A stretch of DNA of 64,000 bases from the sequence record MT446392.1, one strand, 5' to 3'. The notes under the pieces are model-generated. The model did no database searches. It was not told the DNA's origin and worked only from the letters and a program-made list of their open reading frames with translations. Below, piece after piece: positions 8,506 to 62,099 of the stretch. Each line of letters starts with the position of its first letter. Positions within the stretch are counted from its first letter, which is position 1. A program made the position numbers and the translations under genes. The stretch is from Escherichia virus TH15.

Positions 8506-8596
8506 GCAGCAAAACCTGGTGCCTTATCTGGATGCTGTGTATCCCAGTAATTTGCGTTTGTTTTAGTTTATTATTAATGAAACTTGCATAAAAGAG

Positions 8597-8642
8597 TGTA
8601 CATCTCCAGTGGTTGTAGTATAATGAACCTATCAACTACTGG
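8597..8642 (+). promoter_or_regulatory. Early promoter with a hairpin whose 3' arm covers the SD
   Basis: TGTACA 8597-8602, TATAAT 8619-8624; inverted repeat ctccagt (8604-8610) / actggag (8636-8642) spans the -10 and the GGAG SD. Confidence 0.5.
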
Positions 8643-8650
8643 AGATGATT

Positions 8651-8767
8651 ATGAAAAAGTTACTTAAAGCCATTTGGAACATGTTTGTACTGTTTGTTGT
8701 CCTGAGCATTTTCCCAATTGTTTTTATGATTGACCATGTACGTGTTTACTTTAACTATTTCTTTTGA
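8651..8767 (+). CDS. Small hydrophobic peptide (38 aa, one predicted TM segment)
   Basis: ATG follows an early promoter and GGAG; hydrophobic core FVLFVVLSIFPIVFMI. Confidence 0.3.
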   Translation: MKKLLKAIWNMFVLFVVLSIFPIVFMIDHVRVYFNYFF

Positions 8768-8777
8768 GGAAAATATT

Positions 8778-8900
8778 ATGCGGTATAGTTCAAACTTTCA
8801 GAAATCCAATCGTCGCTTTGACTTTATGTTCAAGTTTATTGTGGCGATGATTATCCTGATTTTCATTGGTGCTATTGCAATGATTGGTTTCCAGGTCTAG
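8778..8900 (+). CDS. Small hydrophobic peptide (40 aa, one predicted TM segment)
   Basis: GAGGA SD; hydrophobic core FIVAMIILIFIGAIAMIGF. Confidence 0.3.
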   Translation: MRYSSNFQKSNRRFDFMFKFIVAMIILIFIGAIAMIGFQV

Positions 8901-8980
8901 ATTGCTGCTGAAGTGTTCACGCAAATCCAGGATAATGGTCTGAAGTCTGTTGTTGACGTAATTTGGAATGGAGCTAAGCA

Positions 8981-10110: not shown

Positions 10111-10199
10111 TATGAGTAATTTCCATAACGAACATGTGATGCAATGGCATCGTCATAATCTTAAATTAACTGGCGTCTTTGGACGCCCTTGAGGAAAAT

Positions 10200-10367
10200 A
10201 TGACATCAGTCTTTTCATTCATTTATCTAGTGGCGGTCATTGTTTTAGTAACTCTTTTTGTCGCAGGTGTCTTCATCCCGCCTATGTGGTTTGTTTATTT
10301 CTTGTGTGGATGGTTTGTACTGGATGCCTTAGTTAAATTTATGGTTTCCGCGGTGAGCAATGATTAA
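10200..10367 (+). CDS. Small membrane protein (55 aa; ac/stp-region analogue)
   Basis: ATG with GAGGA SD (track start 10179 is TTG); two hydrophobic segments. Confidence 0.35.
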   Translation: MTSVFSFIYLVAVIVLVTLFVAGVFIPPMWFVYFLCGWFVLDALVKFMVSAVSND

Positions 10368-10450
10368 GAAAATCTTGGGCTACTCGTTAGCCCTTGCTGC
10401 CTTATTGGTGGCGCTGTATTATGGAATTGTGTTTGCATTAGTGCAGGTTG

Positions 10451-10475
10451 TGCTTTTTATTTCTGATGCTATAAT
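10451..10475 (+). promoter_or_regulatory. Middle promoter (MotA box TGCTTT plus TATAAT) for gene 52
   Basis: TGCTTTTTA at 10451-10459, TATAAT at 10470-10475; T4 gene 52 is also middle-transcribed. Confidence 0.5.
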
Positions 10476-10504
10476 GGCAGTACATTCACTGATATGGTAA
10501 AAAT

Positions 10505-43723: not shown

Positions 43724-43956
43724 TGCTTAGCGAAACCCCAATTACTGTTGAAGAGTTTCACGAAAAAGTGAAGGCATTTGCTCAAGCGATGATTAACCAC
43801 GTATCACAGCGATTTCCTGATGCGACTCTGAAAGTTATTCAGGAATCTGCACGCAGTTTTATGATTGTCATTAATCCAAAAGATGGTGACCAGTTTACTC
43901 AATTGAAATTGGGTTCTGACGGTCTGGTTGAAGCACAGCGAGTGTACATTCAATGA
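43723..43956 (+). CDS. Hypothetical protein
   Basis: Translationally coupled ORF. Confidence 0.4.
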   Translation: MLSETPITVEEFHEKVKAFAQAMINHVSQRFPDATLKVIQESARSFMIVINPKDGDQFTQLKLGSDGLVEAQRVYIQ

Positions 43957-44288
43957 TGAATTTGATGGATATTTTCCAGGAAGCACTTAAAAATGATTTA
44001 GGTGACCATCGTAAGTTGGACCCGGAGACAACTGCATTTATCAAAGTAACGCTTGCAAATGATGCTCTGTTTAAAAGTATTCACCCAAGTAATTATGATG
44101 CGGTTGTTATTACAGAAGCTCCTGTAGAAATTGGTGAGCGAATGTTTGGGGTGATTTTTGATGATAAGAAAAAACGCTTCAGTGATGGTGATAGTATAAT
44201 TACAACACATGTTAAGAGCATTACTAAATTGCGACATGAATTATATCGTGTTGAAACTATTAAAACCAATTATCTCGTGGTGATGTAA
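43953..44288 (+). CDS. Hypothetical protein
   Basis: Translationally coupled ORF. Confidence 0.4.
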   Translation: MMNLMDIFQEALKNDLGDHRKLDPETTAFIKVTLANDALFKSIHPSNYDAVVITEAPVEIGERMFGVIFDDKKKRFSDGDSIITTHVKSITKLRHELYRVETIKTNYLVVM

Positions 44289-44870
44289 ATGAAACCAACT
44301 ACTGTTCTGCAAATCGCGTACCTTGTATCTCAAGAATCAAAATGCTGCTCCTGGAAAGTGGGAGCTGTTATTGAAAAGAATGGACGCATTATTTCTACAG
44401 GGTATAATGGTTCCCCTGCGGGTGGGGTCAACTGTTGCGAGCATGCGGAAGAGCAAGGTTGGTTACTGAATAAACCTAAACCTGTTCTCGTCCCCGGCCA
44501 CAAGCCAGAATGTGTGAGATTCAGTAAGGTTGACCGTTTTGTATTGGCGAAAGCCCATCGCGAAGAACATTCTGCATGGTCAAAGAACAATGAAATCCAC
44601 GCAGAACTTAATGCAATTTTGTTTGCGGCAAGGATGGGGTCGTCAATTGAGGGAGCGACTATGTACGTGACGCTTTCTCCTTGTCCTGATTGCGCAAAGG
44701 CAATTTCGCAATCAGGAATCAAGAAATTGGTTTACTGTGAAACGTATGACAAGAATATTCCTGGTTGGGATGATATCCTGAAGAATGCAGGAATTGAGGT
44801 GTTCAATGTGCCTAAGCGTAGTCTAGACAAATTGAACTGGGAAAACATTAACGAATTTTGTGGTGAATAA
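44289..44870 (+). CDS. cd: dCMP deaminase
   Basis: 193 aa as in T4; zinc-binding motifs HAE...E and SPCPDCAK. Confidence 0.9.
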   Translation: MKPTTVLQIAYLVSQESKCCSWKVGAVIEKNGRIISTGYNGSPAGGVNCCEHAEEQGWLLNKPKPVLVPGHKPECVRFSKVDRFVLAKAHREEHSAWSKNNEIHAELNAILFAARMGSSIEGATMYVTLSPCPDCAKAISQSGIKKLVYCETYDKNIPGWDDILKNAGIEVFNVPKRSLDKLNWENINEFCGE

Positions 44871-45784: not shown

Positions 45785-45941
45785 AATTAGCGTTATAAAT
45801 AATAATATGGATTGGCTGCCGGACCAGTTAGTTAACCGGAGAATCCTAAACGGTGGACTACAACTGAGAGACTTGCCGAAAGGAAGTGAAATTCAGAAGA
45901 ACGTGTCCACCAAATATTCACCTCATATTGAGGCTTCTAAA

Positions 45942-46196
45942 ATGTCTTTAAACAAACAATTACAACACGCTCTTGAACTGCAACGCACTGCATGGAATAA
46001 CGGTCACGAAAACTATGGCGCATCTATTGATGTTGAAGCCGAAGCACTGGAAATTCTGCAGTATTTCAAACATCTTAACCCGGTACAAACCGACCTTCGC
46101 GCTGTACTCGAAGCTAAAGATGAATTGAAATATGCTAAGCCGCTGGCATCTGCTGCGCGTAAAGCTGTTCGACATTTTGTCGTTACTCTGAAGTAA
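45942..46196 (+). CDS. rIII: Lysis-inhibition accessory protein rIII
   Basis: Internal ATG with GAGG SD; LQRTAWNNGHENYGASIDVEAEALEIL and C-terminus KYAKPLASAARKAVRHFVVTLK match remembered T4 rIII. Confidence 0.8.
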   Translation: MSLNKQLQHALELQRTAWNNGHENYGASIDVEAEALEILQYFKHLNPVQTDLRAVLEAKDELKYAKPLASAARKAVRHFVVTLK

Positions 46197-46594
46197 GTTT
46201 TAGGTGATTCGCTACCTTAAGTGCGGCTAGAAAATCGAGGAGCCGTCGAACTGTCTGATTAATGATTTGCGAATCATTATAGTTTTAAGACCCCGGCAGT
46301 TTTACGGTGTACCTCTTGAATGTTATTTTATAGCGGCAAGTGCATGCTACCCCGAGGTGATGGCCAATCGGGAGTACGCCTCAAGGCCTATATATCCATC
46401 AGTATATATCTTATCCTCGAGTAATCGGACCCGGAACCTTTAAGCTAACGGTGTGCAACAGATAAGAGCTATAAAGTATGATGGCGAGGTTTATGGTTAT
46501 CCTGCCGTTAAATATCCGAAACCTAATGTTCCCTTCGAGGGCTTGCGCAGGCAATGTCAATAAGTCCTGCATTCTATTTTAAAGAGAATTTAAT
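46197..46594 (+). other. ORF-free, relatively GC-rich structured intergenic region (candidate non-coding RNA or leader)
   Basis: About 400 nt with stops in all frames; several local inverted repeats (for example aatgatt-tgcg-aatcatt at 46261-46278, cccttcgaggg near 46540). Confidence 0.35.
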
Positions 46595-46756
46595 ATGGCT
46601 AAGAAAGAAGTTAAAGTTGTTGATGGCTCCTCCAAACGCGCTGGTTACAAGCGTGCGTCCAACAAGCGAATCAATCAGGTGGCTGATAAACTTCAGGCTC
46701 GTGCTCGTGCGGTATTGCGTGCCGATGCAGCTTGCTTTGGTAAGCCGAAAGCGTAA
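46595..46756 (+). CDS. Small basic protein (53 aa)
   Basis: ATG ORF rich in K/R/A, ending directly at a strong intrinsic terminator; codon usage typical of highly expressed genes (cgt, gct, aaa). Confidence 0.35.
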   Translation: MAKKEVKVVDGSSKRAGYKRASNKRINQVADKLQARARAVLRADAACFGKPKA

Positions 46757-46760
46757 GTTC

Positions 46761-46790
46761 AGGGACTCTTCGGAGTCCCTTTTTTTTATT
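46761..46790 (+). terminator. Intrinsic terminator downstream of the small basic ORF
   Basis: agggactcttcggagtccct followed by eight T. Confidence 0.8.
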
Positions 46791-51562: not shown

Positions 51563-53614
51563 ATGTCTGAACAATTAAATGAACTCTTTGACAAATATAT
51601 CGAAACCTTCGGTTATCCTGTCATTAATATGAATCCAAAATACAAGGTCCCACAGGTTTGGCAATTCGGTGTTCCTGGGACCAATTCTCTTATGGCCCGT
51701 TTGATGCAATTCACGGGCAAAGAAACAGTTAAACAATATAAACGTGGTGATGCAATTGCCGAGGTATTCCTGCTCTCCGGGACTTCACACGGTCATGCTG
51801 TTCCTCTGAAGGGTGGCCTAGGTGAAAAACCTCTTGATGCGATTAACCTGATTTTTACCACAGTCTGGGAAAGTATCAAACTAGGCAAACCTGATGTAGT
51901 CTTGTTCCGTTTCCCCTCCAAAAAGATGAAAGGTCAAGAGCAAGCTGTTATTCGTATTATGAATCGACTGATTCAAATGAAAACTTCCGGGCGTTATCAT
52001 GTTCTTCCGAATGCATCTGGTCTCGGTAAAAAGAACGCTTATGTAATTATGTACAAAAAGGGTGTTGACCTACTGTCGGTTGATGGTATGCCTCCAGTCC
52101 CTGAGAAATATCAAAAAGTCACAACAAAAGTTGGCGACGTATTCACCAATAAAGATAACGGTGCACAAGTCTCCAAACAAGAAATCGCAGCCGAAGTTCT
52201 GATTGATGCCGCAAACAAAAAGACCGATGCTTCTGTTGCACAGAAAACTAAAATCAGTCGCCGAGCTATTGCACAAGCCCAGTATGCACCAAATGAGAAT
52301 GTCCCAGAAGGTTGGGATGAAATTGATGCAGAAGCTGCTAAATTTAGTCGACCTGCGACTGCTGAATTAATTGATGATGCCGAAGAACTGGAAATTTTTG
52401 TTCGACCTTCTGAAACGAATACTATGGCACGTATGCGCGCAGCAGATATGGCTATGCGAGCAAATGGTGTTTGGAAAGAAGAAATTCGTGTTGAAGACAC
52501 TGACCCAATTTTTAACCGTATGCACCGTGAACTTAAACGTGCTCCAGTCGGCAGTATGAAGCAGATGCAGATTTTTGCCGAATCATGTGCAGAAATTCTT
52601 AACCTTCGTAAAGCTGCATTTATCGAAAGAAAAATGAATGATGCTCCCCCTAACCTGGATGCAGCCACTTATGCAGCCACGCTCTGGGAAGAAGAATACA
52701 CAAGCGCCATTCGTGTTGCAGTTAAAGACTTTGCCGAAGAAGCATCAGAAAATACTCTTAATTTCACAGCAGGGTATACTGACAACCGTTTCCATTATGG
52801 CCAGCGAGAAGCAATTGCAGATTATTGTGGAGCAAACTATGTCGATATTAATAATTATTTGATGGGTAATTATTATGAAGAAGATGCTGAATTCCTAAAT
52901 CTGGACAGAGTTGTCGAAACAATTAAGGAATTGGATTCGGCCTTTGAAATTGGACATAAGTTGCCACCCGATACAACTCTTTGGCGTGGTCAATATTTAA
53001 ATGTTCCTACATTTAATAAAATTAAGCAATCGAAATTATTTTATTTCAGGAACTATGTATCAACGTCGTTTAAACCGATTATCTTTGGTGGCTGGGTGGC
53101 GAACGTTGCTATGGCCGCAGTTCATCAGGACTATCGTGATGGGACATCTTTCCAGGCTGATGACGAAATTGTTTTACCAAATATTCCGGGTGCAAACCCA
53201 GATAACGCAATGATTCATGTTGGTTGGAAAATTTCTGGGGCGGACTTAATTAACGTAATTGTTCCCGGCGAATTGTCAGGAAACCCGACCGAGCAAGAAG
53301 TTATTCTTCCTCGTGGAACTATAGTTAAGATTACAAAGATTACGGATGCGTCGTATCAAGGAAATGCGAACGTCAAAATGCTGGAAGCGGATATCCAGAC
53401 CACTGACCAACTGGATGAAAATGCAGTTATCTATGATGGTGATGTGTTGATGGAAACTGGCGAGCTTGTCGTTTATAAAGGCGAGGAACCAGAAGAATCT
53501 GTTGACTTCGCATCGTTTGCATCCTCCAGGGTGACGAAGAAAGTCAACCAAGGCCTTGGTATTCTTGCTAGTTGTATTAATTTGGAAAGTATTCCTCCTA
53601 AATTCCTTTCATAG
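51563..53614 (+). CDS. alt: ADP-ribosyltransferase Alt-like (virion-packaged ART)
   Basis: 683 aa versus T4 682 aa, adjacent to ligase as in T4; late promoter upstream; C-terminal ART-type R / STS / ExE motifs (FRNYVSTSF, EQEVILPRG). Confidence 0.75.
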   Translation: MSEQLNELFDKYIETFGYPVINMNPKYKVPQVWQFGVPGTNSLMARLMQFTGKETVKQYKRGDAIAEVFLLSGTSHGHAVPLKGGLGEKPLDAINLIFTTVWESIKLGKPDVVLFRFPSKKMKGQEQAVIRIMNRLIQMKTSGRYHVLPNASGLGKKNAYVIMYKKGVDLLSVDGMPPVPEKYQKVTTKVGDVFTNKDNGAQVSKQEIAAEVLIDAANKKTDASVAQKTKISRRAIAQAQYAPNENVPEGWDEIDAEAAKFSRPATAELIDDAEELEIFVRPSETNTMARMRAADMAMRANGVWKEEIRVEDTDPIFNRMHRELKRAPVGSMKQMQIFAESCAEILNLRKAAFIERKMNDAPPNLDAATYAATLWEEEYTSAIRVAVKDFAEEASENTLNFTAGYTDNRFHYGQREAIADYCGANYVDINNYLMGNYYEEDAEFLNLDRVVETIKELDSAFEIGHKLPPDTTLWRGQYLNVPTFNKIKQSKLFYFRNYVSTSFKPIIFGGWVANVAMAAVHQDYRDGTSFQADDEIVLPNIPGANPDNAMIHVGWKISGADLINVIVPGELSGNPTEQEVILPRGTIVKITKITDASYQGNANVKMLEADIQTTDQLDENAVIYDGDVLMETGELVVYKGEEPEESVDFASFASSRVTKKVNQGLGILASCINLESIPPKFLS

Positions 53615-53998: not shown

Positions 53999-54955
53999 TA
54001 ATATACGTTGACTTCCACCAGAGACTGCTCTCCCAGAACCAGTGAACGTATTGTACAGACTTGTTAATCCAGATTGGGCACCAGACAGGCGACTCAATTT
54101 GGCAACTTCTGCGTTCAAGTTGTTATCTGAACTAATACCAGATACACCCTTAATAACCTTATCTTCCAACCATTCTAATGCAGCATTTCTTCCCACCGCC
54201 CCAGTTGACATAACGCGATAAGCAAAAGTCACATCAAATGTAGCTATCTGATTATCCCCTTCATAGCTCAATTCAGGCGCAGATACACTTACAGGAACAC
54301 AACCAGTTAACATAACAACCGTGTGTGGCAATCCATTACGTGAGTGAAGGTTGACCTGAATATCTGCTTCAACATCTTCAGGCAAAGCTCTTAGCTGGGT
54401 AACTGGGTCCTGTACAGAGTTAACCCAATCGTTAAATGCTCTGAAGTTCCCTGCCTCTGAATCCATTCTAAAGCTTAATACCAACGGAGAATATTCTCTC
54501 CCTGTTATCTTGATATTTGGTGCGTTATGGTTAAGGTCCATTTCGTAGTTCAATGTGTTGTCCGGAAGCTTAACGGAGTGAACTAATAGCCCGGCCGTTG
54601 GATAAGCCATATTAAAGAAATCAAGCAGGTAAGTACCAACCTCAAATTCCCCTAATAATGATTGCACAACACGGTTACTCATTGCCCCAATAAGATATTT
54701 GCTTATACCGGATTTACGAATAAGCTTTTGAGTTCCTGCAGTAACAAGAGTTGTTATTCCCTGGGTTAAGTCGCCTTGTGTTAAACCAAACCAATCCGAG
54801 TTAACAGGAAGGTTGCTGAATAATGCACCACCGAACTGGTCCAGAAGATTCTGGGATTTAGAGGAAGGCGCGGTCGCGAAGACCACGCTAAAAAGGTTAT
54901 TCCTCTGCAAGTCGATATTAATCGCTTGTGTTTGAAATTCTTGTAAAGTAAACAT
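53996..54955 (-). CDS. 54: Baseplate tail-tube initiator gp54
   Basis: 319 aa versus T4 320 aa; position downstream of gene 48. Confidence 0.85.
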   Translation of the reverse strand: MFTLQEFQTQAINIDLQRNNLFSVVFATAPSSKSQNLLDQFGGALFSNLPVNSDWFGLTQGDLTQGITTLVTAGTQKLIRKSGISKYLIGAMSNRVVQSLLGEFEVGTYLLDFFNMAYPTAGLLVHSVKLPDNTLNYEMDLNHNAPNIKITGREYSPLVLSFRMDSEAGNFRAFNDWVNSVQDPVTQLRALPEDVEADIQVNLHSRNGLPHTVVMLTGCVPVSVSAPELSYEGDNQIATFDVTFAYRVMSTGAVGRNAALEWLEDKVIKGVSGISSDNNLNAEVAKLSRLSGAQSGLTSLYNTFTGSGRAVSGGSQRIL

Positions 54956-61741: not shown

Positions 61742-62099
61742 TTGGTTGTCGTAAAGCAAATATTAGAAAACCATTAAAACCTTCTGAAGAGAAGATGCGT
61801 AAATTTCAACAGTTTATTAATGCCGCATTAAAGAAGCACTAAATAGATATGTAAGTTTAACTGAGGAGACAATCATGTCAGATAAGATTTGTGTTGTCTG
61901 TAAAACTCCAATCGATTCTGCATTGGTTGTGGATACAGACCAAGGTCCGGTGCATCCGGGCGCCTGTTATAATTATGTTCAGAGTTTGCCAGTTACGGAA
62001 AATACAGAAGAGCAACTGAACGAGACCCAACTTTTAATTTAGCTAGTGTTGTTAACCATTTTGGTTTTGCCCCTTCCTTTTTGGTTGGGGCCTTTTTAT

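Follow-up and report, generated by a model that had tools for sequence, protein, structure and literature searches.

T4-like phages and the toxIN abortive-infection system are a leading model of phage–defence arms races, in which the ToxI RNA holds the ToxN endoribonuclease inactive. Some phages carry RNA anti-CRISPRs (Racr), solitary CRISPR-repeat mimics in which a short RNA copies the RNA component of a defence system. ToxI consists of 36-nt pseudoknots that inhibit ToxN (PMC3401426), whose cleavage motifs are GAAAU and AAAU (PMC10853763). T4 was restricted by toxIN in work from the Laub laboratory (PMC9391042), and wild-type phage PhiTE was reported to gain no protection from its single ToxI unit, escape requiring expansion (PMC3475682). 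Another RNA antitoxin, AvcI, is a non-repetitive RNA of about 171 nt that belongs to the AvcD deoxycytidylate deaminase defence system (PMC10511110).

The locus compared here is the gap between rIII and gene 30.9 (46197-46594) of a Gaprivervirus-type T4-like phage, Escherichia virus TH15, analysed within a 64,000-nt stretch of sequence record MT446392.1 (the window). The gap is made up of four or more modules, which are independent of one another, have been shuffled among phages and vary in order between genera; in other T4-like phages the same site holds an alternative cassette. We are highly confident of the structural and evolutionary description of these modules. Our best explanation, the chances of which we regard as evenly balanced, is that a composite cassette of co-transcribed non-coding RNA fills the gap, as opposed to a decayed gene or one single leader. 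The initial annotation had offered a regulatory 5' leader, a stable non-coding RNA or the remnant of an inserted element; of this, non-coding RNA sequence under strong selection stands, while the idea of a single element does not, and we infer that the gap is present as stable RNA. Literature searches returned no described RNA at the rIII–30.9 locus.

Upstream of rIII, an exact T4-type late promoter motif (TATAAATA, 45794-45801, + strand) is likely the source of transcripts through the gap to the terminator behind 30.9, and promoter calling gave nothing sigma-70-like within the gap itself. The gap does lie directly after rIII, the lysis-inhibition accessory protein gene, whose true coding sequence is 45942-46196 (+ strand), where the matching parts of close relatives carry an rIII annotation; the longer mechanical ORF from 45807 was rejected as the rIII start, being a leader artefact. 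The small basic ORF reported downstream proved to be real. It is gp30.9 (46595-46756, + strand; phrog_1427, E 4e-26), a conserved, basic 53-aa protein with 15 lysine and arginine residues, whose homologues occur only in T4-like phages and for which searches of Pfam and the PDB gave no match and no named homologue. Its codons are indeed of the highly expressed type: scored with a set of E. coli-optimal codons, the optimal-codon fraction is 0.73, the highest in the window and above that of each of the 57 + strand ORFs with 100 aa or more (mean 0.49, maximum 0.70). AlphaFold predicts a disordered basic N-terminus and helices at residues 14-21 and 23-48 (mean pLDDT 71), and this two-helix model is too simple for a fold search. 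The strong terminator expected after the ORF was also found, an intrinsic terminator (46761-46790, + strand) with an 8-bp stem (five G-C pairs), a UUCG loop and a T8 tract (z = -4.63) that ends the rIII–30.9 transcription unit and whose equivalent is annotated as a terminator in phage fPS-65.

Every frame of the gap contains stops, as first stated (5-11 per frame, both strands), and the longest open stretch over both strands and all frames is 70 codons. The mechanical ORFs of 58 aa (TTG start) and 34 aa (ATG), together with several GenBank records that annotate a "hypothetical protein" under the match, could point to a decayed or unrecognised protein-coding gene, but this explanation is essentially refuted. 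Besides the stops, a sole ORF runs through the conserved 145-nt core of the gap, and 10 of 20 homologues interrupt it within 3-7 codons; 1-nt frame-breaking indels occur, and core substitutions are compensatory in helices and do not fall at third codon positions. A search for an intact gene across the interval, proposed at the outset as the way to expose a decayed one, found none in any related phage. A scan of the window for tRNA and tmRNA genes was also negative. Other long ORF-free stretches of the window were rejected as comparable gaps, being clusters of small genes annotated in VR26.

The functional status of the gap is revealed by comparison among phages, its GC content and folding energy being unremarkable. 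The reported GC enrichment is weak: the gap stands at 0.43, the window mean is 0.405 ± 0.035, 26% of equal-sized windows are as high, and only the 145-nt core reaches 0.48. As a structured region the gap is not supported by folding energy (z = -0.24 for the gap, -1.2 for the core) but is supported by covariation. Folding energy is significant within the gap only for the hairpin at 46236-46318 (z = -3.6), and z-scores were not significant for the gap as a whole, the core on either strand, the ToxI-like unit, module M2 or the leader proximal to 30.9. The GC and hairpin arguments are not what makes the region real. The suggested Rfam check returned no match at E ≤ 10 in 46180-46610, none in the gap in a 3-kb scan and none at gathering level anywhere in the window. 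Searches with Rfam 15, in which the classes at issue were riboswitch, ribozyme, sRNA and CRISPR repeat, likewise gave no covariance-model match for the core, module X or M2.

One module can nevertheless be assigned to a known family, which the initial annotation had been unable to do from sequence alone: a pseudo-ToxI, that is, a single unit (AGGTGATTCGCTACCTTAAGTGCGGCTAGAAAATC, 46202-46236, + strand) resembling the ToxI RNA antitoxin of toxIN. Our reference was a plasmid array of the 36-nt ToxI repeat (5.6 copies, consensus AGGTGATTTGCTACCTTTAAGTGCAGCTAGAAATTC) directly upstream of an annotated ToxN/AbiQ toxin on the E. coli plasmid pNMEC-O75B, to which the unit is identical at 33 of 36 bases. 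Rfam gives no match even on a genuine ToxI array and could not have revealed this identity because it holds no ToxI model. Its two substitutions (T9>C, A25>G) fall at positions of paired changes in other variants; read from the sequences, the stem UUGC/GCAG becomes UCGC/GCGG in the window and UCAC/GUGA in T4, and the stem GGU/ACC becomes AGU/ACU in CIP9 and PEi20. These changes are consistent with the window unit keeping the two short nested stems of the ToxI pseudoknot (PMC3401426). Because it is a single unit, with no repeat family found and no toxN nearby, and so without the arrangement of tandem array, terminator and toxN, 46202-46236 is, judged by its sequence, an orphan ToxI mimic and not a toxIN locus. 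Its 3' flank reads GAAAAU, with an extra A, and its 5' flank (GUUUUAGG) lacks AAAU, while phage 7-11 has both motifs. The missing 5' ToxN-type cleavage site in the window counts against a role as a ToxN decoy.

We detected ToxI-like units in 198 phage records from several families, including 7-11-like, T5-like and PhiTE-like phages, which suggests that mimicry of type III antitoxin RNA is widespread in lytic enterobacterial phages. The literature examined contained no mention of such a unit 3' of rIII in T4-like phages. T4 itself carries a degenerate copy, and its restriction by toxIN despite this copy counts against a counter-defence reading. The unit (M3) also bears some resemblance to the MotA consensus and, in part, to a type I-F CRISPR repeat. 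A MotA middle promoter was rejected on the ToxI match and on the presence of the same sequence before a terminator in 7-11-like phages that lack MotA, and a type I-F CRISPR-repeat mimic was rejected on the same grounds, the unit being near-identical to ToxI.

The ToxI-like unit is followed by module X (46238-46315, + strand), a long irregular hairpin closed by GAGG...CCUC with an inner AAUGAUU-UGCG-AAUCAUU (MFE -25.9 kcal/mol, with z = -3.57 and equal stability in 1 of 200 shuffles), which is conserved in T4 and fPS-65 and found only in T4-like contigs. Module M2 (46481-46524, + strand), beyond the core, is an H-type pseudoknot with conserved loops (AUCCnnnCGUUAAAUA), in which stem S1 pairs 46481-85 with 46504-08 and stem S2 pairs either 46495-98 with 46520-23 or 46487-92 with 46519-24. 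S1 covaries (GGC/GCC, GAC/GUC, GUC/GAC, GUGG/CCAC), and 90.6% of alignment cells are paired, against 32-54% when the structure is slid. M2 is present in T4 too and was seen only in T4-like contexts, with no match in E. coli genomes. The proximal 30.9 leader (46531-46594, + strand), as read from the sequence, comprises a small hairpin at 46531-41, a second at 46547-70 with a U-rich tract behind it, and the region for ribosome binding; it is conserved with T4 though not thermodynamically significant (z = 0.07). The great stability of hairpin X, the start of the modules right behind rIII, whose stop codon is 11 nt away in the Moon type, and the small hairpins such as GUACCCUUCGAGGGCUUG that flank the core in many phages could all be read as RNA processing or stability elements, either protecting the rIII 3'-UTR or serving as RNase III/E sites that split the rIII and 30.9 messages, with no function in trans. 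We consider this quite improbable: such simple elements need no 20-nt invariant single-stranded stretches, four-way junction or cross-genus identity above 90%, and the move of the core, by itself, to another transcript setting, described below, would be hard to account for.

The core RNA (46324-46478, + strand; minimal 46330-46472) is a four-way junction of about 145 nt. Its terminal stem P1 pairs 46330-34 with 46468-72; the remaining helices are P1b (46335-37/46386-88), P2 (46346-57/46364-79), P3 (46389-95/46402-08), P4 (46409-15/46461-67), P5 (46417-20/46425-28, with the GNRA loop GUAA) and P6 (46429-33/46449-54). The covariation check that had been recommended was positive, as 19-20 of the 44 pairs called by RNAalifold are compensatory, a count that comes from modest sequence diversity, with EcS1 (71% identity) the most distant member, and that in part reflects few lineages. 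Alignment cells are paired at 98-99%, compared with 25-42% when the structure is slid, and none of 500 shuffles reaches the observed value. G·U pairs outnumber A·C mismatches 47 to 2, and therefore the + strand is the RNA. P1 covaries while its sequence is not conserved, and a 20-nt stretch (GCUAACGGUGUGCAACAGAU, 46444-46463, + strand), partly in P6 and the 3' arm of P4, is invariant in a 20-sequence alignment; phage dhaeg has one U>C within it. A covariance model scores the core at 186 bits and finds a single copy in the window. That the core is a structured RNA under strong constraint, uncatalogued until now, is well supported.

We found the core in 406 phage records spanning Tequatro-, Gapriver-, Dhaka-, Moon-, Karam-, Jiaoda-, Kanagawa-, Kagamiyama- and Muldoonvirus, about a third of the phages that contain rIII (1113 phage records by rIII tblastn), and always as a single copy per genome. 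Of seven phages compared, six have a core 82-99% identical to that of the window and EcS1 one at 71%, while gp31, rIII and 30.9 range from 56 to 82%. The T4 sequence aligns on either side and is missing precisely the core, so the earlier suggestion of an inserted-element remnant holds for the 145-nt core only, which is present here and absent there, and the covariance model found no copy in CHI14, CkP1, AB-Navy71, TG1 or T4. The two-block core pattern and a 19-mer gave no match in pattern scans of 185,579 representative bacterial and archaeal genomes, from which the invariant 20-nt stretch is likewise absent, nor did the core match any of 5,426 E. coli genomes and 72,556 plasmids. In IMG/VR a relaxed pattern recovered only T4-like matches and chance matches in coding DNA, a metagenome G-variant pattern returned nothing, and the general pattern yielded only T4-like contigs. 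Because no host counterpart was found in the genomes and plasmids searched, mimicry of a host RNA by the core, after the logic of ToxI, is unsupported.

The 7-11-like podovirus PKM.Lu.22.1 carries the core as a clean 148-nt insert relative to both phage 7-11 and its 98%-identical sister PKM.Hi.22.6. The insert came alone, with no protein gene, and lies immediately beside the phage's own ToxI mimic; the remaining differences between the sisters are HNH endonuclease genes. The insertion shows no target-site duplication, and no terminal inverted repeats of conserved sequence were found. Presence or absence at one site, and an insert whose companion differences are homing endonuclease genes, are what a selfish or catalytic RNA might leave, whether a self-cleaving ribozyme or a small element moved by recombination or collateral homing, with any benefit to the phage secondary. 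The perfect four-way junction, internal loops and GNRA loop recall ribozyme architecture, and edge cleavage could free the ToxI-like unit in the several phages where the core abuts it. We give this explanation a slim chance, since the core matches no Rfam ribozyme family, lacks terminal repeats and a duplicated target site, and occurs once per genome; its long persistence at a single locus across many genera argues for selection at the level of the phage. A MITE was rejected because P1 covaries, target-site duplication is absent and there is one copy per genome.

The PKM.Lu.22.1 insertion also bears on whether the core and the other modules form a cis-acting 5' leader of 30.9, a riboswitch-like aptamer or a gp30.9 autoregulatory site that controls translation or read-through. 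In T4-like phages the core is always upstream of 30.9 on the same strand, its anatomy is aptamer-like (P1 as a closing stem that varies, nucleotides of the junction and loops that do not, and a GNRA loop), a hairpin that possibly occludes the 30.9 ribosome-binding site (AUGUAUUUCUCCAAAAUGGAAGA) is kept in many genera, and the basic, helical gp30.9 of the model could bind RNA. In PKM.Lu.22.1, however, the core precedes a terminator and a sigma-factor gene and not 30.9, and the identical terminator is present in the core-less sister. T4 and many other phages have no core yet retain 30.9 and its proximal leader; where the core is present, other modules intervene and it ends anywhere between about 45 and about 200 nt before the start codon; and it matches no Rfam riboswitch. 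We therefore consider such a leader unlikely, and a purely cis role for the core in particular, as first envisaged, is hard to square with a core that varies in position and has been transferred next to other genes.

Under the preferred reading of a composite RNA cassette, transcription would start from the rIII late promoter or promoters further upstream and end at the 30.9 terminator. The ToxI-like unit may then decoy ToxN, or it may seed repeat expansion of the kind known from Pectobacterium phage PhiTE, while the core would be a trans-acting, host-directed RNA, most likely a decoy or inhibitor of a conserved enterobacterial RNA-binding defence or host protein. The rIII–30.9 locus would in this case be a small "RNA counter-defence island". 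A counter-defence function of the core is a tentative proposal, to which we give somewhat less credence than doubt. Points against the cassette reading are that the core does not always adjoin a ToxI-like unit (the two are 90 nt apart in the window, and Moon and PG7 types have no such unit beside the core), that its folding energy is unexceptional and that the searches revealed no host counterpart. With its exceptional conservation, absence from the bacterial genomes searched and direct evidence of transfer between families, the core offers a concrete candidate, open to testing, for a functional RNA class that is new to phages among the best studied. The locus also shows that un-annotated "gaps" of T-even phages can be mosaics of exchangeable RNA cassettes.

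Among larger and regulatory RNAs, riboswitch aptamers, ROOL and GOLLD have features in common with the core: a closing helix that covaries, junctions that are invariant, a tetraloop of the GNRA type, very high sequence constraint and phage association. ROOL and GOLLD are far larger, however, and riboswitches have a constant downstream gene and expression platform, which the core does not. T4 rnaC and rnaD (species 1 and 2) are stable RNAs of 120-140 nt encoded by T-even phages, but their locus is the tRNA cluster, and homology to the core was rejected because an unfiltered cmsearch did not rise above noise (5.4 bits at best). Compared with the Racr mimics, the ToxI-like unit is near-identical to ToxI, and the core resembles no Rfam CRISPR-repeat family. 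The window unit resembles the PhiTE pseudo-ToxI, which is likewise phage-borne without toxN, of the TT variant and with one extra A before the cleavage-site U (PMC3475682). Whereas ToxI of toxIN is a tandem array, the window has one unit (about 1.1 repeats), without the upstream AAAU, in a T4-like phage 3' of rIII, and by analogy with wild-type PhiTE this single unit may be insufficient against ToxN.

For the core, AvcI offers a precedent in which a single structured RNA, of similar size class to the 145-nt core, keeps a defence effector inactive. AvcI-type systems are triggered when phages shut off host transcription, which a phage-supplied RNA could conceivably counter. The core has no sequence likeness in E. 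coli genomes, plasmids or representative genomes, and mimicry of AvcI by the core is only an analogy. Reasoning from these parallels, it is possible, though on the doubtful side, that the core is the founder of a new class of phage-borne, horizontally mobile RNAs that neutralise RNA-regulated or RNA-binding defences. The rIII–30.9 gap of T-even-type phages would then be an island that collects decoys (the ToxI mimic, the core, M2 and alternative cassettes) exchanged across unrelated phage families, and its RNAs would hold defence effectors in check much as ToxI or AvcI do.

The phage is T4-like, with Escherichia phage VR26 and Shigella phage SP18 (Gaprivervirus) as nearest relatives, and the interval between rIII and gene 30.9 (46197-46594; hereafter the gap) is 97.7% identical to that of VR26. 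Along the + strand, cd, two small genes and gene 31 precede rIII and the gap, which is followed by a 53-aa ORF and then a terminator; T4 has the same arrangement, cd-31.2-31.1-31-rIII-30.9. The gap has no open frame, as the initial annotation had proposed, each of the six frames carrying 5-11 stops; the ORF it described is real (gp30.9, phrog_1427), and the strong terminator behind it was upheld. The ORF's highly-expressed-type codon usage was also borne out, its optimal-codon fraction of 0.73 being the highest among ORFs tested in the window and above all 57 of 57 larger + strand ORFs. Two arguments fell away: the gap is not distinctively GC-rich (0.43, equalled by 26% of same-size windows), and predicted folding energy is ordinary both for the whole gap and for its central RNA. 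Rfam scans, one of the checks it had suggested, gave no match in the gap and no gathering-level hit in the window, and a tRNA scan of the window found none. The mechanical rIII ORF (45807-46196, 129 aa) is too long, as homologous rIII begins at 45942; in the 157-nt gene 31-rIII interval (45785-45941) lie a ~140-nt leader and, at 45794, the late-promoter motif TATAAATA. Three further long stretches of the window lack an ATG ORF of >=60 aa (8506-8980, 10111-10504 and 61742-62099), but are probably not non-coding, because VR26 annotates clusters of very small genes there (ndd.x, uvsY.-1/-2).

About 1000 phage records matched the gap, with stepped coverage, and we aligned it with those of fPS-65, T4 and Klebsiella phage KP01. 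T4 lacks exactly ~150 nt from the middle, and KP01 shares only the middle part (~95% identity) between diverged flanks. Comparison of the whole intergenic region across 15 phages revealed recurring + strand blocks that differ in order and presence: M3, a ToxI-like unit (46202-46236); X, a stable hairpin (46238-46315; z = -3.6); the core (46324-46478); M2, an H-type pseudoknot (46481-46524) whose stem S1 covaries and whose loops are conserved; and the proximal 30.9 leader. Sequence searches confined X and M2 to T4-likes, and M2 had no match in E. coli genomes. That these modules serve processing or RNA stability is quite improbable. In seven T4-like contigs (L053, L070, L072, L073, L075, L078 and L079) an alternative ~55-nt cassette (…ACTATCACGCGTCAGAAAAAGGTTATCTGTCTAAGTCGTGGTTGG…) occupies the core's position between X and M2, making the site an apparent hot spot for alternative non-coding inserts. 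The interval is a mosaic of selected RNA modules, among which the core stands out as mobile and highly constrained.

The core, present once in the window, is a new structured RNA. From a MAFFT alignment of its 20 distinct copies, RNAalifold derived 44 consensus pairs, and compensatory changes are present in 19; a second alignment of 35 sequences was fitted to the covariance model and is therefore biased towards structure. Standard pairs filled 98.3% of cells in the MAFFT and 99.3% in the model-fitted alignment, falling to 26-42% and 25-42% when partners were slid by 1-3 columns; compensatory pairs numbered 19 and 20, against 2-6 and 2-5 when slid, and 0/500 shuffles in either alignment reached the observed value. 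The predicted fold is a perfect four-way junction, comprising a closing stem (P1) that covaries; an arm in which P1b and an internal loop lead to the long hairpin P2; a hairpin P3; and a P4 arm, inside which lie hairpin P5, with its GNRA cap, and the invariant region ACCCGGAMCC...GCUAACGGUGUGCAACAG. The helices P1b and P6 lack covariation support because they never vary. G·U pairs outnumber A·C pairs 47 to 2, which places the functional RNA on the + strand, in the sense of the neighboring genes, and in half of the copies the sole ORF crossing the core is left with 3-7 codons. The covariance model matched neither rnaC, rnaD nor the gap of T4, and since the core belongs to no known family its kind cannot yet be named. 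In phage dhaeg (L065:1340-1498) a U>C change within an otherwise invariant 20-mer (GGUGCGCAAC) breaks a predicted P6 pair. A ToxI-bearing contig gave a weak match to the model (L050:3371-3505; 15.6 bits, E 0.08). The 5' junction of the core (46338-46351, AAGUGCAUGCUACC) reads as the ToxI segments AAGUGCA and UGCUACC, as if 19 nt of an array had been deleted, though the resemblance may be coincidence because the G-variant cores (PKM.Lu.22.1, EcS1, COW86c) differ there.

We detected the core in 406 phage records, compared with ~1100 for rIII, spanning many Tevenvirinae genera and Muldoonvirus; it was absent from T4, T2, T6, CHI14, CkP1, TG1 and Acinetobacter phages. Core identity to the window was 82-99% in six of seven phages, in which gp31, rIII and 30.9 reached 56-82%; the outlier was EcS1 (71% versus 64-69%). 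Searches of E. coli genomes and plasmids, with pattern scans of representative genomes and metagenomes, did not find it in bacterial genomes, plasmids or non-T4-like metagenome contigs. The exception to its T4-like range is PKM.Lu.22.1, a 7-11-like podovirus bearing both core and M3. Compared across the whole genome with PKM.Hi.22.6, a sister 98% identical to it, PKM.Lu.22.1 shows a clean 148-nt insertion directly 5' of the native ToxI mimic, so the core moved by itself between phage families. Otherwise the two genomes differ in a pair of HNH endonuclease genes and in small ORFs. Free-standing HNH genes setting the sisters apart lie at 43856-44560 and 52360-52821 in PKM.Lu.22.1 and at 54176-54558, among others, in PKM.Hi.22.6, whose DNA polymerase gene is split. 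We consider it very unlikely that the core is itself a selfish or catalytic element.

By sequence comparison, M3 is a ToxI mimic, that is, of the RNA antitoxin to ToxN in the type III system toxIN. Rfam holds no ToxI model, hence the absence of an Rfam match. Small E. coli and Salmonella plasmids carry the M3 sequence at 3-10 places per record; in pNMEC-O75B, 5.6 tandem 36-nt repeats (AGGTGATTTGCTACCTTTAAGTGCAGCTAGAAATTC), corresponding to the ToxI antitoxin of PMC3401426, lie immediately upstream of a gene annotated as "type III toxin-antitoxin system ToxN/AbiQ family toxin". The window unit matches this repeat at 33 of 36 bases, and its two substitutions, T9>C and A25>G, lie at sites that change in pairs in the other variants. 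Two further features, the TT variant and an additional A ahead of the cleavage-site U, are those reported in PMC3475682 for the PhiTE pseudo-ToxI. T4 itself carries a degenerate copy whose changes look compensatory (UCAC/GUGA). Exact copies of ~32 nt occur in unrelated IMG/VR viral contigs (L050, L051/L052/L056/L057/L058), including two tandem ToxI-like copies in a 5' UTR (L050:1865-1950), with a consensus sigma-70 promoter ~20 nt upstream of them. M3 is native to PKM.Hi.22.6 and phage 7-11, where it is flanked by an SSB-like gene and one for an ECF sigma factor and lies directly before a terminator. At least 198 phage records (PhiTE-like, T5-like, 7-11/phiEco32-like and Klebsiella T4-like) contain ToxI-like units, which are also listed for Vibrio phages; our literature search found no report of one in T4-like phages.

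Homologues of gp30.9 (46595-46756; net charge ~+11) were found in T4-like phages only, and it matched no family or structure; in its predicted model (mean pLDDT 71) the basic N-terminus is disordered and two helices come after it. Set against the general description of TifA, a small basic RNA-binding ToxN inhibitor with a C-terminal basic helix, gp30.9 is similar but lacks the "PT" motif. Loci from outside the T4/Gaprivervirus clade (L003, L004, L005, L014, L016, L022, L024 and L025) strongly conserve the final ~30 nt ahead of the 30.9 start (CCCAUGUAUUUCUCCAAAAUGGAAGA), downstream of a long GGGAGC…GCUCCC helix. This stretch could fold over the 30.9 ribosome-binding site and occlude it. A cis-acting leader or riboswitch role for the core itself is unlikely; the core is not tied to any single downstream gene, which favors an RNA acting in trans on the host. 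Its patchy, accessory-like distribution, its horizontal transfer, its tendency to adjoin the ToxI mimic and its conservation across phages whose hosts share common core machinery favor the same trans-acting, host-directed role.

Transcripts would run from the late promoter at 45794, or from promoters upstream, to the 30.9 terminator. By analogy with PhiTE, the ToxI-like unit would most likely serve either to decoy ToxN or to seed an expansion, and one unit may be insufficient for protection. Counter-defense is the favored purpose for the core, though tentative and somewhat short of probable, its main weakness being that no host counterpart was found in E. coli genomes, plasmids or representative genomes; AvcI offers a precedent, in which a defense toxin is restrained by a non-repetitive structured RNA (PMC10511110). 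The ToxI-like unit is a fresh example of the already known phage RNA mimicry of ToxI, and the locus as a whole is best described as a phage RNA mimicry cassette, with a substantial chance that its core is something new.
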